In this document: positions 1-4,426 of the stretch, piece by piece
Numbering within the stretch: the first letter of the stretch is position 1
How the letters are laid out: every line of letters starts with the position of its first letter
Assembly (NCBI GenBank): GCA_040403495.1
Contig: JBBAKM010000004.1
Location: forward strand, 23,456-87,455
Source: Bacteroidia bacterium
GTDB taxonomy: Bacteria > Bacteroidota > Bacteroidia > NS11-12g > UBA955
DNA: 64,000 bases
Direction of reading: 5' to 3'
The notes under the pieces: model-generated
Databases searched by the model: none
What the model saw: only the letters and a program-made list of their open reading frames with translations
What the model was told of the DNA's origin: nothing
Position numbers and translations under genes: made by a program

Positions 1-237
1 TGTGCCCAGAACGACTGCTATAAATCCAAGAATAGTTGCGTAAATGTTGTCTGCTTGTCCCATAATAATAATGGCGCCTATAATGACTACTCCATGAATG
101 GCATTGGCACCACTCATTAATGGTGTGTGAAGTACACTAGGTACTTTTTCTATCAGTTCGATACCGACAAAAATCATCAACACGACCATGTAAATCATGA
201 GTTGATGTTCTGAAATGAATTTTAATATATCTTGCAT
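1..237 (-). CDS. pntA: NAD(P) transhydrogenase subunit alpha part 2 (PntAB-like small membrane subunit). Partial: the 3' end lies beyond the window edge.
   Basis: The reverse-strand ORF starts at ATG 235-237 and is open to the window edge. It translates MQDILKFISEHQLMIYMVVLMIFVGIELIEKVPSVLHTPLMSGANAIHGVVIIGAIIIMGQ..., a hydrophobic PntA alpha2-type sequence, and lies downstream of pntAA. Confidence 0.65.
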   Translation of the reverse strand, partial: MQDILKFISEHQLMIYMVVLMIFVGIELIEKVPSVLHTPLMSGANAIHGVVIIGAIIIMGQADNIYATILGFIAVVLGT

Positions 238-295
238 TTGGTTAATGGTTATTGGTTAAATTGTTATTGGTTAATAGTCCCGATAGCTATCGGGA

Positions 296-405
296 AATTG
301 TTATATTGTTATATTGTTGAATTGTTAAATTGTTGAATTGTTATAATTTTGAATTATTTTATTTTCAAATTGTTAAATTGTTGACACCTACTAGGCTGAT
401 TCTAG
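296..405. repeat. Array of degenerate tandem repeats of the unit TTGTTA(A/T)ATTGTT(G/A)AA.
   Basis: Direct reading: ttatattgttatattgttgaattgttaaattgttgaattgttataattttgaatt...caaattgttaaattgttgac. The same motif recurs in inverted orientation at 811-840. Confidence 0.7.
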
Positions 406-429
406 TTTCGTGAGGGGGTATCGAAGGGG

Positions 430-810
430 TTATATTGTTAAATTATCGTTTGTGTATTTGATAAGTGAATTAATAGATTTGGGTAATTTTTGAAGTGTTT
501 GTAATAGTTCGTTATATTCGCTTTCAGAAATTAAATTGCGGTGTTTAGATTTTTCGGTCCAATCGTATGATTCAAGTACAGAGCCTTTGCTGTATTGAAA
601 GAATTTGATTTTGTCTTTTTTATGAAATCGTCCAAAACCCTCTGCAATATTGGCGGAAATTGAATCAATGGCTCTAACAAATTGTTTTCCAACAGTATCT
701 CTAGCAAAAAAGTCCCATTTGATGACAATATCCCAAGTAAAGTTACTTAAGTCTTTTGAAATATTGTAAGCTTCTATTTGGCTTATTTTAAGATAATTTT
801 TTTCTGTCAT
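430..810 (-). CDS. Four-helix-bundle protein (23S rRNA intervening-sequence protein family, PF05635/TIGR02436-like).
   Basis: A 126-aa ORF with the characteristic ...ISANIAEGFGRFHKKDKIKFFQYSKGSVLE... core. It sits between pntAA and pntAB on the same strand. Confidence 0.7.
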   Translation of the reverse strand: MTEKNYLKISQIEAYNISKDLSNFTWDIVIKWDFFARDTVGKQFVRAIDSISANIAEGFGRFHKKDKIKFFQYSKGSVLESYDWTEKSKHRNLISESEYNELLQTLQKLPKSINSLIKYTNDNLTI

Positions 811-840
811 TTAAATAACAATTTAACAATTTAACAATCC
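811..840. repeat. Inverted copy of the TTGTTAAATTGTT repeat (aacaatttaacaatttaacaat).
   Basis: The reverse complement, attgttaaattgttaaattgtt, matches the repeat unit at 296-405. Together they flank the four-helix-bundle gene. Confidence 0.65.
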
Positions 841-846
841 AATAAT

Positions 847-1959
847 TTATTTCTTCAAAATTTCTCCGTCTTTACAAATCAATGTTCCTTTGGTGATTTC
901 TTCTTCCATTTCCCATTTAAATCCTTCGTTATTTGCTAGGTGTATAAGGAAAGTGTAAATGTTTTTGGCATAACTTTCACTGGCGTTTTGAGATAATAGT
1001 GACGGTAAATTAGTTTCGCCCACTATTTTAACACCATGTTTCACAACGACTTTGCCAGCTTCACTTATTTCGCAATTGCCTCCTTGTTCTACTGCCATGT
1101 CCACAATAACACTGCCTAGTTTCATGGTTTTTACCATGTCTTCGGTTACTAAAATTGGTGCTTTTTTGCCAGGAATTAAGGCCGTTGTAATCACAACATC
1201 AGCAGCAGCTATGTGTTTGCCAAGTATTTCTCTTTGCTTTTTTAAGGTGTCATCACTGGTTTCTTTCACATAGCCACCTTCTATTTTTACATCTCCAGTA
1301 TCAAAACTAATGAATTTCCCCCCTAATGATTCCACTTGTTCTTTTGTTTCAGGTCTTATGTCGGTTACCTCAACCACAGCACCCAATCTTTTGGCTGTTC
1401 CAATAGCTTGCAAACCAGCTACACCTGCGCCAAAAATCAATACTTTTGAAGGAGTAATCGTTCCGGCAGCTGTCATTAACATTGGGAAAATTCTAGCCGA
1501 ATGGTGAGCGCCAAGCATAACCGCCTTGTAACCAGCCAAATTGGCTTGTGAACTTAATGCATCCATACTTTGTGCCCTCGAAATTCTCGGAATAGCATCC
1601 ATACTAAAAACCGTAATTTTCTTGGCGTTTAACTTTTCTATGAGCTCAGGATTGGTGAGGTGGTAAACAAAAGAAATTAAAGTAGAACCTTCCTTTAATA
1701 AATTGATTTCATCCTGATTGGGAGCATTAACTTTTAGTAATACATCCGATTTTTGACAAACGTCAGCATTTGAATTTAAAATTTCTGCTCCCGCTTGTTG
1801 GTAGTTGTCGTCGGAAAAATTAGACAAAGTGCCTGAACCAGTCTCTATGACACATTTAAAACCTGCTTTCACTAGGTTTTTAACCACATCAGGACTCATG
1901 GCAACTCTATTTTCGCCTTGTTTCGATTCTTTAATAGTACCTATTATCATCATGGGCAA
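847..1959 (-). CDS. pntA: NAD(P) transhydrogenase subunit alpha part 1 (AlaDH/PNT N- and C-domains).
   Basis: The 370-aa product has ENRVAMSP, a GAGVAGLQAIGTAKRLGA Rossmann motif and overall PntAA architecture. Confidence 0.9.
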   Translation of the reverse strand: MPMMIIGTIKESKQGENRVAMSPDVVKNLVKAGFKCVIETGSGTLSNFSDDNYQQAGAEILNSNADVCQKSDVLLKVNAPNQDEINLLKEGSTLISFVYHLTNPELIEKLNAKKITVFSMDAIPRISRAQSMDALSSQANLAGYKAVMLGAHHSARIFPMLMTAAGTITPSKVLIFGAGVAGLQAIGTAKRLGAVVEVTDIRPETKEQVESLGGKFISFDTGDVKIEGGYVKETSDDTLKKQREILGKHIAAADVVITTALIPGKKAPILVTEDMVKTMKLGSVIVDMAVEQGGNCEISEAGKVVVKHGVKIVGETNLPSLLSQNASESYAKNIYTFLIHLANNEGFKWEMEEEITKGTLICKDGEILKK

Positions 1960-2084
1960 ATGTAGAAAAAAAACAAGAGAGTATCGATGTCACATGTTAT
2001 TTTTTTAGCAAAAAGCTTAAATCAATTGGTTTTTATTACATTGTAATGGTTAAGATAAATTATTTTTTAAATTTTTAGTCCTCT

Positions 2085-2160
2085 TTATTCATTTTCCTTT
2101 GGTAGGTATGCAGCCTTGGATTAAGCGATGAGTACCAACCAATTTTTGTGGTCGTTCTGA
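2085..2160 (+). repeat. Conserved ~75-nt noncoding element, copy 1 (tcctttggtaggtatgcagccttggattaagcgatgagtaccaaccaatttttgtggtcg).
   Basis: It is ~75% identical to 3086-3165 in direct orientation. It contains a potential hairpin, TTGGAT...AACCAA, which in copy 2 reads TTGGCT...AGCCAA, a compensatory change. Confidence 0.6.
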
Positions 2161-2233
2161 TAATTAGGAGGCAACCTCACAAGGCTATCATTCAGAATTA
2201 GTATAGCTAAAATCAATAATGAGGGAGTCGGTT

Positions 2234-2854
2234 TTATTTTTCAATATTGTGTCTTACAAGATCCCAAACACGTATATTTTTGTTAGTTGAAGTATCAACG
2301 ATTTTTTTTCTTATGTAACCAACATTCATTGAAAAATAATAGTCAAAATTATATTTAGATACTGACGATCTCCTTCGTATGTCTTTATATGTCTTTCCTT
2401 TAATTTTAAAAGAATCAACAATATAAGATTTGCGGTCATAATATTCAAATGCATATATTCTTAGTAATTTAAAATTATTGTTTTCAATGTCATTAACTAC
2501 AATTTCGTCTGTTGATGGATTTTCATATAGTTTATATTTTGTTAAAGAAATAGTATCTTTATAGAATGAAGAATACAAATACATGTTTGAAGTTCTTAAA
2601 TGGTATTCGTATGAGCAATCATAACTTTTTTCTAGATAATCACTATAATCACTATTTATAACATATACTGAATCTATTGCTTTTGAAATGGTATCTTCAT
2701 AAATCCAATAGGAGTTTTTGTTGAAATATAAGCATTGATAATCTATATTAAATCTCCTGTCAAAGTATGTTAAATTACAAGGGTGATCATTTGGCTTACT
2801 CATACAAGATATCAAAAGTATCACGCTTGTAAATATATAATTTTTGTTTTTCAT
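2234..2854 (-). CDS. Hypothetical lipoprotein.
   Basis: The 206-aa product has a signal peptide plus lipobox (VILLISCMS) and is otherwise unrecognisable, Tyr/Asn-rich. It is flanked by the two copies of the conserved 75-nt element. Confidence 0.5.
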   Translation of the reverse strand: MKNKNYIFTSVILLISCMSKPNDHPCNLTYFDRRFNIDYQCLYFNKNSYWIYEDTISKAIDSVYVINSDYSDYLEKSYDCSYEYHLRTSNMYLYSSFYKDTISLTKYKLYENPSTDEIVVNDIENNNFKLLRIYAFEYYDRKSYIVDSFKIKGKTYKDIRRRSSVSKYNFDYYFSMNVGYIRKKIVDTSTNKNIRVWDLVRHNIEK

Positions 2855-3085
2855 AGTATGGTTAATTTAATTGGAGCTGTTGCTTGAAAAATGAATTTAC
2901 TTTTTTTAGTAACTTTTTGTTTTAAGAGTTAATACGCAAATATATTATTTATTATTTTTTTATTTAGCTATGGGCAAAATAATATCAATAATAGTTTAAA
3001 TCCTCATTTCCGAGGTTTTAGATATCGAAAAAGTTTTTTAATACGGCTTGTCTATTATGTGTTGGTGGGCAAACATCGTTTCACG

Positions 3086-3310: not shown

Positions 3311-4426
3311 ATGATTATCGGTGTTCCAAAAGAAATTAAAAATAACGAAAATAGAGTTGCTGTAACGCCAGCAGGTGTGAGTGATTTCGTTAGACATGGC
3401 CATACAGTTTATGTGCAACATACTGCTGGAAATGGAAGTGGTTTTAGTGATGAAGAATATACTGAAGCTGGAGCGACTATTTTGTCAACAATCGAAGAAG
3501 TATATGCCATTGCTGAAATGATTGTTAAAGTAAAAGAACCAATCGAAAGCGAATACAAACTGATTAAAAAAGGTCAATTGTTATTTACTTACTTTCACTT
3601 TGCTAGCTATGAGCCATTAACACATGCAATGATTGCAAGTGGTGCTACTTGTTTAGCTTATGAAACTGTTGAGAAAAACGACCGTTCATTGCCTTTGTTA
3701 GTGCCTATGAGCGAAGTAGCTGGTAGAATGTCTATTCAACAAGGGGCTAAATATTTAGAAAAACCAATGGGTGGAAGAGGTATTTTATTAGGTGGTGTTC
3801 CGGGTGTTAAACCAGCAGAAGTATTGGTATTAGGCGGTGGAATTGTGGGAACACAAGCTGCTAAAATGGCTGCAGGTATGGGCGCTCAGGTTACTATCAT
3901 GGATATTTCTATTCCACGTTTACGTCAGTTAGACGATATTATGCCTGCTAACGTTCAAACGATGTTCAGTAACTCATACAACATTAAAGCGGCTATCAAA
4001 ACTGCCGATTTAGTGATTGGTGGCGTTTTGATTCCAGGTGCAAAAGCGCCACACTTAATTACCAAAGATAATTTAAGTTCAATGAAAAAAGGTTCTGTAT
4101 TGGTGGACGTTGCTGTAGACCAAGGTGGATGCTTCGAAACAACTAAACCTACTACTCACGCTGACCCAATTTATGTAATAGATGATGTTATTCACTATTG
4201 CGTTGCCAATATGCCAGGAGCAGTTCCTTACACTTCAACTTTAGCTTTAACAAATGCAACTTTACCGTATGCTATTCAATTGGCAAATCAAGGTTGGAAA
4301 ACAGCTTGTTCAAGCAATAATGAATTGAAATTAGGTTTAAATGTGGTTGATGGAAAAGTGGTTTACAAAGCCGTTTCTGATGCTTTCAATTTACCTTACA
4401 CGCCAGTTGAAGAAGTGTTAAATTAA
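3311..4426 (+). CDS. ald: L-alanine dehydrogenase.
   Basis: The 371-aa product has MIIGVPKEIKNNENRVAVTP at the N-terminus, a GGGIVGTQAAKMAAGMGA NAD-binding loop and full-length AlaDH similarity. Confidence 0.9.
   Translation: MIIGVPKEIKNNENRVAVTPAGVSDFVRHGHTVYVQHTAGNGSGFSDEEYTEAGATILSTIEEVYAIAEMIVKVKEPIESEYKLIKKGQLLFTYFHFASYEPLTHAMIASGATCLAYETVEKNDRSLPLLVPMSEVAGRMSIQQGAKYLEKPMGGRGILLGGVPGVKPAEVLVLGGGIVGTQAAKMAAGMGAQVTIMDISIPRLRQLDDIMPANVQTMFSNSYNIKAAIKTADLVIGGVLIPGAKAPHLITKDNLSSMKKGSVLVDVAVDQGGCFETTKPTTHADPIYVIDDVIHYCVANMPGAVPYTSTLALTNATLPYAIQLANQGWKTACSSNNELKLGLNVVDGKVVYKAVSDAFNLPYTPVEEVLN

Follow-up and report, generated by a model that had tools for sequence, protein, structure and literature searches.

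A four-helix-bundle gene between inverted arrays of an 8-nucleotide repeat at a pntAA-pntAB junction: a candidate selfish cassette related to 23S rRNA intervening sequences

What is a gene of the family first met inside 23S rRNA intervening sequences (IVSs) doing between two subunit genes of a transhydrogenase, and what are the repeats on either side of it? In the window, by which we mean the whole 64-kb stretch of DNA analyzed, pntAA, a four-helix-bundle ORF and pntAB follow one another on the minus strand throughout (Table 1). A first-pass annotation had placed such a gene here and described inverted repeat arrays bracketing it. The gene was borne out by matches to PF05635 and TIGR02436, and the inverted arrays by Tandem Repeats Finder (TRF) and an inverted-pair search, while their extents had to be redrawn: the cassette measures 609 nt (238-846, minus strand) and occupies the entire pntAA/pntAB intergenic space, its 5' array takes up the full spacer from pntAA to the ORF, and its 3' side comprises two sub-arrays split by a palindrome. 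The surrounding ~3 kb holds AlaDh, pntAA, pntAB, pntB and unannotated small ORFs; in a related locus (L001), pntAB is complete and is followed by pntB.

Table 1. Coordinates of the cassette and of the host genes that flank it in the window.
Feature	Position	Strand	Details
pntAA (NAD(P) transhydrogenase alpha subunit, part 1)	847..1959	-	upstream host gene; stop codon 849..847; PF05222 E 1e-46, PF01262 E 3.6e-69
5' array	811..846	-	minus-strand read: ATTATTGG ATTGTTAA ATTGTTAA ATTGTTAT TTAA; TRF 816-849, period 8
four-helix-bundle ORF, 126 aa (23S rRNA intervening-sequence protein / S23p / Avd-like family)	430..810	-	PF05635 E 1.4e-21; TIGR02436 E 6.8e-24
3' spacer, non-repetitive, ORF stop codon to proximal array	386..429	-	strain comparison
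proximal 3' array, ~11 units, reverse complement of 5' units (NTAACAAT on transcript)	295..385	-	TRF 295-382 x11
GC-clamped palindrome CCCGATAGCTATCGGG between the two 3' sub-arrays	279..294		strain-variable; window and L005 only
distal 3' array (complement of TTGGTTAA/TGGTTATT variants)	238..278	-	TRF 238-274; directly abuts pntAB start codon
pntAB (small 4-TM transhydrogenase subunit)	1..237	-	downstream host gene, cut by window end; start codon 237..235; PF12769 E 8.2e-21

The unit of the 5' array is ATTGTTNA, a G/T-rich sequence of 8 nt, and the 3' arrays consist of its reverse complement. TRF reported the proximal 3' array as 11 copies of AAATTGTT, the additional array beside pntAB, and a reverse-complement array of 4.2 copies of TAACAATT on the other side of the gene. 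The longest inverted pair joins 310-344 to 815-849 (35 nt, 89% complementary). With up to one mismatch, TTGTTAAATTGTT matches nine times, always within 253-837, against an expectation of 1.4, and none of 100 shuffles reached nine. The cassette holds the single ATTGTT/AACAAT cluster of the 64 kb as well as the single copy of the four-helix-bundle gene, and positions 200-900 contain no repeats other than the 8-mer arrays. The arrays are unequal in length, with 4 units on the 5' side and ~15 on the 3' side, and strong inequality is common at other loci. Among strains whose proteins are at least 98% identical (L001-L005 and L092), the 5' array varies from 2 to 5 ATTGTT (ATTGTTNA) units; the non-repetitive 3' spacer is kept among strains of the window lineage and is missing in L006, a more distant relative. 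The unit is AT-rich and mirror-symmetric (TTGTT).

Several familiar identities for the repeats were considered and rejected. CRISPR arrays have repeats of 23-50 nt with unique spacers, whereas the 8-nt units here run head to tail without spacers; the mention of a CRISPR association for '23S rRNA IVP' concerns adaptation modules, not cassette arrays. A reading of the array as a Bacteroidota promoter fails because the same pattern occurs in six other phyla. An IS or MITE-type element was set aside on the grounds that there is no transposase domain, no boundary duplication and a single copy in the 64 kb.

The 126-aa protein itself is a secure member of its family, with 77.1 bits against PF05635 (cut-off 33.8) and 84.2 bits against TIGR02436 (cut-off 24). 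An AlphaFold2 model (pLDDT 88.6) places helices at residues 13-32, 40-59, 64-90 and 96-123, and the best Foldseek matches are 2GSC (E 3e-5, TM 0.80-0.87) and 2RLD, followed by Avd (4DWL/8UB7). The structures of the homologues 2GSC and 2RLD contain five chains each, and S23p is cited as a homopentamer in work on the Coxiella IVS (PMC4990558); by analogy, the protein, which has a pI of 9.0, is probably pentameric. Because strain comparison of the ORF yields 10 synonymous and no non-synonymous codon differences, we conclude that it is under purifying selection. Profile and Foldseek searches recognized no catalytic or transposase domain in the helical bundle. A HEPN-like Rx4-6H site was considered and discarded, the His after GR being unconserved.

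If the cassette is an insertion, then relatives should offer the junction without it, and the first-pass annotation had proposed looking for such empty sites. They are common: in 52 of 74 metagenome pntAA|pntAB junctions the gap is at most 60 nt (median 13.5), and relatives whose PntAA is 82-86% identical have 1-46 nt there. One relative (L006) carries the same gene at the junction, with a protein 74% identical, and it too has arrays; a relative with the gene and no repeats, which would have counted against the proposed link, did not appear. In total, eight pntAA|pntAB junctions have PF05635 ORFs of at least five subfamilies, each with its own arrays; those in other Bacteroidota belong to different subfamilies, and the repeat unit is peculiar to each. 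Presence is patchy among close relatives, and one copy (L092) has decayed through a frameshift. The PntAA tree is a polytomy in which the window lineage and L006 form a clade in 54 of 200 bootstraps, and it is compatible with one shared insertion or with two. Other ORFs also sit at this junction: Pfam gave no credible match for the 166-aa ORF of L128, nor for the 120-aa ORFs of L168 and L120, for which IDO appeared below threshold only. Together with the array-flanked copies described below, the empty sites largely support the annotation's view of the locus as an insertion cassette, and we regard it as very probable that the ORF and the arrays form one discrete inserted unit.

To what extent does the association of gene and arrays hold elsewhere? 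In a sample of ~70 loci from seven phyla, period-8 arrays lie upstream of the PF05635 ORF and their complement lies downstream. At 52 of 65 loci the upstream flank has two or more copies of some 5-mer and the downstream flank two or more of its reverse complement, and arrays of period 8 are 54-fold enriched beside the ORF (1.19 per kb, against 0.022 per kb elsewhere in the same loci), as had been anticipated if the repeats belonged to the gene. The upstream flank scores a median of 31 against the reverse-complemented downstream flank, compared with 16 for shuffled flanks, 16 for the direct orientation and 19 for the flank of another locus (p 1e-6 to 1e-10). The best lag is 8 in 41 of 66 upstream and 42 of 66 downstream flanks, and about a fifth of the loci have weak or absent arrays. 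The arrays keep one fixed polarity with respect to the ORF: their core, A[TC][TG]G[TC]T, is found 182 times in sense and 19 in antisense upstream of the ORF, and 212 times in antisense and 31 in sense downstream. Hosts at L036, L057 and L083 have G+C-rich units in the same architecture, and the units of another PF05635 subfamily are TCATTGGG and AATTGGCA.

The repeats also follow the protein. Similarity of repeat 6-mers correlates with protein identity (Spearman 0.54, reached by none of 999 permutations). Pairs from different phyla with proteins at least 55% identical share repeats (mean cosine 0.176), whereas pairs from the same phylum with proteins less than 45% identical do not (mean cosine 0.024; p 2e-100). 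As far as sequence comparison goes, the unit tracks the protein lineage and not the host phylum, which lends indirect support to the suggested role of the repeat as a recognition sequence. The ORF, the 5' array and the 3' arrays travel together across phyla as a heritable unit. With housekeeping genes on either side of it in at least seven phyla, this combination of gene and repeats is a travelling unit rather than a local oddity. Its fit into the host is close: the arms begin a median of 4 nt past the upstream stop codon and finish a median of 11 nt ahead of the downstream start codon, and the neighbors on both sides are co-directional at 48 of 57 loci. The host operons are core ones (atpG|atpD, sdhA|sdhB, thyA|folA, infB|trxA), and none of 20 sampled related loci lies in rRNA. 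Among culturable carriers are Flavobacterium columnare (gene between gmk and nadD), Mucilaginibacter flavidus and M. rigui (between thyA and folA), Pedobacter sp. MR2016-19, Solitalea longa and Hymenobacter gummosus. Array hairpins and remnants without an ORF occur as well (L074, L035, L016, L173, L135 and L138). Full-text literature searches gave no description of repeat arrays beside non-rRNA copies.

The family had been called a 'wandering' one, and on short timescales such movement is not apparent. No identical proteins were found in more than one genomic context; each has one. A search of viral contigs returned one weak match only, and PF05635 is thus not a phage-borne family. There is no sign of recent transposition, and active mobility is not borne out by these single contexts and the near-absence from viral contigs.

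Complementary arrays on one transcript could pair. With RNAduplex, the best partner of the 5' array lies in the proximal 3' array (847..814 with 345..312, 31 bp, -28.4 kcal/mol); the distal 3' array is a weaker alternative partner (-16.7 kcal/mol). The minimum free energy fold of the whole cassette likewise pairs the 5' and 3' arrays (z -3.05). Across 74 loci, the 5' and 3' flanks form a median of 27.5 bp, compared with 11 for a shuffled 3' flank (p 2e-5); shuffling served as the control because the mirror-symmetric TTGTT stays complementary when the 3' flank is reversed, which makes the reversed flank invalid. Strand asymmetry was not significant in either of two tests: duplex energy was better on the sense strand at 36 loci and on the antisense strand at 32 (p 0.25), and G·U-compatible transition mismatches numbered 75 for the sense and 58 for the antisense transcript (p 0.17). 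A stem at the RNA level is thus not proven by any strand asymmetry. The unequal array lengths are more than a simple stem requires, and the tandem period of 8 and the conserved core are not explained by a stem alone.

These features invite comparison with IVSs in 23S rRNA (Coxiella burnetii helix 45; also Leptospira, Brucella and Haemophilus), which have S23p / PF05635 in common with the cassette. In Coxiella burnetii, the terminal repeats of the helix 45 IVS form a 28-bp stem that is cut by RNase III, and two to four tandem heptamers GACAGAT, variable among strains, lie just 5' of the S23p ATG (PMC4990558). The cassette resembles this in its terminal inverted repeats, predicted to form a stem of ~28-30 bp around the ORF, and in its strain-variable short tandem repeats (2-5 units) immediately before the ATG. 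It differs in lying at a junction within a protein-coding operon and not in 23S helix 25 or 45, in having a period of 8 rather than 7, and in having arms that are wholly tandem units. Furthermore, purifying selection acts on its ORF, which is intact; the Coxiella ORF appears to be decaying and untranslated (PMC4990558). ORF-bearing rRNA IVSs are considered selfish and tolerated through loop-out (PMC4990558).

Based upon these likenesses, the reading that we find on balance probable is a selfish cassette of the IVS type that sits at pntAA|pntAB and loops out of the host transcript. The cassette would be co-transcribed with the pnt operon, and its arrays would pair in the transcript into a stem of ~30 bp, looping out the ORF. 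Such a loop-out would restore a near-native distance between the pntAA stop codon and the pntAB start codon, and the host operon would therefore tolerate the insertion, as rRNA tolerates IVSs. By analogy with the Coxiella IVS, the stem would be a likely substrate of RNase III, its length of more than 20 bp being compatible; that an RNA stem forms and is processed seems to us plausible, with slightly more room for doubt than for belief. The operon had been described as interrupted. It is indeed lengthened, but there is no obvious break: the gene reads in the direction of its neighbors, and a scan for sigma-70 promoters and intrinsic terminators gave nothing exceeding shuffles. The sole terminator-like site is the palindrome at 278-295, on the antisense strand, and an Rfam scan of window positions 1-3000 (E <= 1) gave no match.

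The core is conserved in sequence, not in complementarity alone, so that a sequence-specific factor must read the unit. The most economical candidate would be the co-inherited, basic protein, probably a pentamer, in which the footprint of one protomer would match one 8-nt unit, and we see about as much reason to accept as to doubt that the protein reads the repeats. Reading of the arrays could serve autoregulation, protection of the stem or mobilization. TRAP offers a precedent as an oligomeric ring protein that reads tandem short RNA repeats, 11 (G/U)AG. The analogy is mechanistic only, as there is no homology and TRAP sites have no complementary array; one repeat per protomer would nonetheless account for a period that stays fixed and for a core that is conserved while the spacer bases vary. 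REP/REPIN-RAYT systems provide a second parallel: a single-copy gene with cognate inverted flanking repeats, covariation of repeats with protein lineage, and vertical stability with little recent movement. However, RAYT is an HUH tyrosine transposase of known chemistry, whereas the cassette protein has no known catalytic motif, and REPs are dispersed single palindromes in hundreds of copies, whereas the 8-mers here are tandem and confined to the flanks.

Could the arrays instead act on DNA? They might be inverted subterminal iterons to which the four-helix-bundle protein or a host recombinase binds on DNA that is double-stranded or folded into hairpins, so that the cassette moves or exchanges as DNA and the RNA stem is a by-product. 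The ends of Tn7, Mu and Ac/Ds have multiple subterminal binding sites, direct sub-repeats with the two ends mutually inverted, and the arrays share this arrangement of direct sub-repeats inverted between ends. The sequence-specific core and the covariation of unit and protein would suit binding sites, the lack of a significant sense/antisense asymmetry fits, and so do the presence of several subfamilies at one junction and the hairpins and remnants that lack an ORF. Yet the cassette differs from those elements in having no transposase, target-site duplication or copy-number amplification: the bundle has no recognizable catalytic domain, the window junction shows no duplication, and identical multi-copy elements are absent. 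A DNA transposon, moreover, would need neither co-orientation nor a snug fit between stop and start codons. We therefore consider a DNA-level mobile element unlikely, though the most serious alternative to the looping-out cassette.

A domesticated regulatory module is less probable again. Here a regulator or RNA chaperone serving the host would bind the arrays and adjust expression of the flanking operon, such as the ratio of pntAA to pntAB-pntB, with array slippage as a source of heritable variation in output. Purifying selection on the protein, a stable single context for each copy, location within core metabolic operons and array copy numbers that differ among near-identical strains would all suit such a role. 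But the operons concerned are unrelated (ATP synthase, succinate dehydrogenase, thymidylate/folate, IF2/thioredoxin and transhydrogenase), the module is patchy among close relatives and decays, as in the frameshifted L092, and the rRNA-borne relatives are considered selfish (PMC4990558).

The resemblance to Avd raises the prospect of a retro-mobile cassette, whose mobile intermediate would be the transcript bracketed by its stem: the Avd-like protein would recruit a reverse transcriptase whose gene lies elsewhere, and the cDNA would integrate at cistron junctions. In diversity-generating retroelements, the accessory variability determinant Avd serves the reverse transcriptase as an obligate cofactor; it forms a pentameric, basic barrel, binds a specific RNA stem-loop and shares the four-helix-bundle fold with the cassette protein (PDB 4DWL, 8UB7; Foldseek probability 1.0, TM ~0.7) at just 6-8% identity. 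The strict co-directionality with the transcript agrees with this idea, and other surveys link the family to reverse-transcriptase and adaptation modules. On the other hand, the ~3 kb around the loci with listed genes contains no reverse transcriptase, a template/variable repeat pair is absent, recent copies are not in evidence, and the cassette gene, unlike that of Avd, stands alone between housekeeping genes with its own repeat arrays. We rate this explanation as a shade more improbable than the regulatory one. Finally, although the genome (32.7% G+C) and the mirror-symmetric unit are both AT-rich, chance low-complexity sequence unlinked to the gene can be dismissed, given the excess of unit matches over shuffles, the lack of a second such cluster in 64 kb, the G+C-rich units of the same architecture elsewhere and the cross-locus statistics, which refute it.

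We return to the looping-out selfish cassette. Its generalization, which we put forward tentatively, is that PF05635 genes with inverted 8-nt arrays constitute an unrecognized, cross-phylum class of minimal selfish cassettes, whose protein reads its own arrays, which lodge at the cistron junctions of core operons and loop out of host RNA, and of which the ORF-bearing 23S rRNA IVSs are one special case. What S23p does, and how rRNA IVSs arose and spread, have been questions since the early 1990s (PMC4990558); if correct, the generalization would at last give the S23p/IVS protein a role and offer a way into how IVSs spread. The conserved, polar and lineage-specific arrays beside the gene, found in at least seven phyla and for the most part outside rRNA, already make of a 'wandering gene' a defined element whose protein and repeat form a testable cis-trans pair. 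The association also suggests how insertions may occupy essential operons (ATP synthase, succinate dehydrogenase, thyA-folA and pnt) without breaking them. Should binding be confirmed, compact orthogonal protein/8-mer pairs could be used as parts. Arrays of this kind can also mislead repeat and CRISPR finders and operon predictions. The family numbers 4,529 representatives of 50%-identity clusters (E <= 1e-3), and its annotation reads merely 'four helix bundle protein'.

The cassette that separates pntAA from pntAB at the left end of the window, with all three genes on the minus strand, takes up the intergenic space entirely (table). The longest inverted pair in its two arms spans 35 nt at 89% complementarity, and the 13-mer form of the repeat occurs 9 times against 1.4 expected, a count reached by no shuffle. 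Both the repeat cluster and the four-helix-bundle (FHB) gene occur once in the 64 kb. The first-pass annotation had described such a gene between inverted repeat arrays, and the Pfam and NCBIfam matches together with the repeat and shuffle evidence confirm that the arrangement is real. The 3' repeats are divided into two sub-arrays by a perfect, GC-clamped palindrome (CCCGATAGCTATCGGG), which is terminator-like on the antisense strand only, and which is shared with the window-lineage strain L005, whereas L001-L004, nearly identical in other respects, lack it. In two other loci, L105 (cccgtcattgctttacaatgcggg) and L020, the arrays likewise contain small GC hairpins. Some 1.3 kb upstream of pntAA, on the opposite strand, lies another AlaDh/PNT-family gene, which L001 and L005 have as well; it has no connection with the cassette but could pass for a pntAA duplicate.

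Features at the left end of the window, in window positions
Feature	Position	Strand	Basis or remark
pntAB, 5' part	237..1	minus	Pfam PNTB_4TM
Cassette (intergenic space)	238-846		609 nt
Related array	238-274		Tandem Repeats Finder
Palindrome	279-294		
Array AAATTGTT x11	295-382		Tandem Repeats Finder
FHB ORF, 126 aa	810..430	minus	PF05635 23S_rRNA_IVP, E 1.4e-21; NCBIfam TIGR02436 'four helix bundle protein', E 6.8e-24
Reverse complement of AAATTGTT, x4.2	816-849		Tandem Repeats Finder
pntAA	1959..847	minus	Pfam AlaDh_PNT_N/C
Second AlaDh/PNT-family gene	3311-4426	plus	371 aa, alanine-dehydrogenase-like

Scanning metagenomes with PntAA, we recovered 74 pntAA|pntAB junctions, at 52 of which the gap is at most 60 nt (median 13.5). 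Because the gap is short both in relatives with 82-86% identical PntAA (1, 5, 40 and 46 nt) and in more distant outgroups (12-13 nt), the ancestral state was contiguous pntAA and pntAB, and the earlier suggestion of an insertion, with an empty site in relatives, holds. An FHB protein identical to the window's is encoded on 21 metagenomic contigs, at this junction in every one, and in a second lineage (L006; PntAA 85% identical) the same junction is occupied by a 74%-identical homologue, which lies between ATGGTTAAATTGTTAT units on its upstream side and AACAAT units on its downstream side. In the PntAA tree, the window lineage, L006 and the empty-site lineages form a polytomy, which fits one gain with losses or two gains alike. 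PF05635 ORFs are present at 8 of the 74 junctions, including L092, which belongs to the same species as the window, and represent at least five subfamilies (the window type, L105/L108/L119, L131/L134, L144 and L153; Pfam E 1e-15 to 1e-38), each bracketed by its own repeat (AATTGGCA/TGCCAATT, GATTTNNN, AGATGNNN and others). Some of the remaining junctions hold nucleotidyltransferase genes, and some hold ORF-less array remnants.

The small genes inserted here in other Bacteroidota include a Pol-beta-type nucleotidyltransferase (L096), a second nucleotidyltransferase-like ORF with a small helical ORF interpreted by eye as a HEPN-like partner (L130), and, with no family assigned, a 166-aa ORF (L128) and 120-aa helical ORFs (L168, L120). 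The pntAA|pntAB junction may generally receive or tolerate small selfish genes. The ORF-less remnants, in gaps of 93-113 nt (L135, with eight GAGATGG-type heptamers; L138, with G-rich units and then their complement; L123; L160), resemble either scars left by lost cassettes or empty array hairpins.

The layout is not confined to this operon. The window FHB protein has 3,854 word-index relatives, including proteins 60-68% identical in Ignavibacteria, Patescibacteria and others, and a full library scan returned 4,529 cluster representatives of the family. From one-genome-per-species contigs we took 80 loci, the best matches to one subfamily, which by their record titles span Bacteroidota, Ignavibacteriota, Chlorobiota, Patescibacteria, Omnitrophota, Planctomycetota and Gammaproteobacteria; ORF starts were set at the first ATG and neighbouring genes called by ORF length. 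Nearly all carry tandem units of about 8 nt upstream of the ORF and their reverse complement downstream. The unit varies among loci, but complementarity within a locus is kept (CATGGTTA / TAACCATG in L036, GGATGGTT / AACCATCC in L057, TCATTGGG / CCCAATGA in L086-L089, ATCCTGTT / AACAGGAT in L083). Local alignment of the upstream flank with the reverse-complemented downstream flank gave a median score of 31, versus 16 in direct orientation, 16 after shuffling and 19 with another locus's flank (p 1e-6 to 1e-10). A 5-mer is repeated on both sides, inverted, in 52 of 65 loci, so that other FHB copies, too, are flanked by inverted arrays. The best self-match lag is 8 in 41/66 upstream and 42/66 downstream flanks, and strict period-8 arrays occur at 1.19/kb within 200-250 nt of the ORF versus 0.022/kb elsewhere in the same loci. 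In four loci (L074, L035, L016, L173), a complete cassette has directly beside it, downstream of the FHB ORF, an ORF-less hairpin made of a second array with its inverted copy, which suggests arm duplication or miniature ORF-less derivatives.

Repeat k-mer similarity grows with protein identity (Spearman 0.54, reached by 0 of 999 permutations, over pairs of loci that are phylogenetically non-independent). Repeats are shared between phyla when the proteins are at least 55% identical (mean cosine 0.176) and are not shared within a phylum when they are less than 45% identical (0.024); repeat and protein thus co-vary independently of the host. Since neutral flanks should be randomised at 55-68% amino acid identity, where repeats are still shared, the ATTGYT/ATGGYT core is under selection for its sequence. 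The polarity of the arrays relative to the ORF is fixed: the core is found 182 times in sense and 19 in antisense upstream of the ORF, versus 212 in antisense and 31 in sense downstream. GC skew is positive upstream (+0.33) and negative downstream (-0.17), distant subfamilies show a like trend, and the period of 8 is kept across subfamilies with unrelated units. Polarity, period and protein-linked unit identity go beyond mere complementarity. Copy number, as judged from strain comparisons, changes quickly: among strains with at least 98% identical protein, upstream units number 2-5 and 3' spacers run from about 123 to 192 nt, while the FHB codon differences are 10 synonymous and 0 non-synonymous.

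Both neighbours are co-directional with the ORF in 48 of 57 loci, at short spacings (medians about 45-50 nt). In 39 of these 48, the complementary arms (median 27 nt) open a median of 4 nt past the stop codon of the upstream gene and close a median of 11 nt ahead of the downstream start codon. The host operons are core ones: atpG|atpD in Patescibacteria, sdhA|sdhB in Chitinophagaceae, thyA|folA in Mucilaginibacter, and infB|trxA; a published gene table gives the order gmk|FHB|nadD in Flavobacterium columnare. An rRNA location was found for 0 of 20 sampled loci. In seven Chitinophagaceae-type loci (L014, L027, L030, L031, L048, L049, L058), the cassette is directly upstream of a protein starting MEHYNMNLTLKVW, which is sdhB (confirmed for L014), making sdhA|sdhB a second recurrently occupied junction.

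The nearest precedent is the ORF-bearing intervening sequence (IVS) of 23S rRNA. In Coxiella, RNase III cuts a 28-bp stem formed by the terminal repeats, and the S23p ATG is immediately preceded by tandem heptamers, 2-4 of them depending on the strain (PMC4990558). The window element shares this anatomy, a stem and upstream tandem repeats, but in an mRNA. Based upon this likeness, we propose an IVS-type cassette co-transcribed with the pnt operon, in which the array stem would loop the cassette out, bring the pntAA stop codon and pntAB start codon near again, and probably be processed by RNase III. In the predicted fold of the window transcript, the 5' array pairs with the proximal 3' array (MFE -96.9 kcal/mol, z -3.05), and the best duplex joins 847..814 to 345..312 (31 bp, -28.4 kcal/mol). 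Across 74 loci, the MFE structure, a noisy prediction on RNAs of about 580 nt, joins the flanks by a median of 27.5 bp versus 11 with the 3' flank shuffled (p 2e-5). The array core TTGTT is mirror-symmetric (e.g. 295-385), so a reversed, uncomplemented array still pairs with its partner; this invalidates the reversed-array control and means that the arrays can pair in many registers.

Alternatively, the arrays could act in DNA, as iteron-like ends. We consider this unlikely, yet keep it alongside the RNA stem because a preference for sense-strand pairing is non-significant, the chief weak point of the RNA model: duplex energy favours the sense strand in 36 loci and the antisense in 32 (p 0.25), and G·U-compatible mismatches number 75 in the sense transcript versus 58 in the antisense (p 0.17). 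A stem alone, for its part, fails to account for the tandem period, the conserved core and the unequal array lengths. The proposed IVS-type mechanism would also need a sequence-specific factor that recognises the 8-nt units, for which the cassette's own, probably oligomeric protein is the most economical candidate. The AlphaFold2 model of this protein (pI 9.0) is a four-helix bundle (pLDDT 88.6). Its top Foldseek matches are the S23-family structures 2GSC and 2RLD (five chains deposited for each), which sequence profiles likewise reach, followed by the Bordetella phage retroelement protein Avd (accessory variability determinant), free and in its RT-RNA complex. Avd, a basic barrel of five subunits, binds a defined RNA stem-loop. 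Across 20 homologues drawn from several phyla, forty columns are invariant, NIAEGFGR and KKDK(I/V)KF among them.

Earlier work already covered the FHB family and its occurrence in rRNA IVSs, the Coxiella heptamers and the Avd homology, and a 1993 proposal held that the IVS ORF might serve mobility. In the full-text literature, where subscription journals are thinly covered, we found no description of inverted tandem-octamer arrays beside non-rRNA FHB genes, of array-protein co-variation or of the cistron-junction habit; we rate the element as an IVS-like cassette of protein-coding operons, generalised across phyla. Reading of the repeats may play a role in its spread. No sign of active mobility was seen: identical FHB proteins have one genomic context each, the family was all but absent from the viral contigs searched, and decayed copies exist (L092). 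In L092 (3642-3990; PntAA 99% identical), the ORF is shortened to 115 aa with an altered C-terminus, in what looks like a frameshift; decay happens within the window species, though other strains differ only synonymously. The truncated protein (P0025) is found on 3 contigs.
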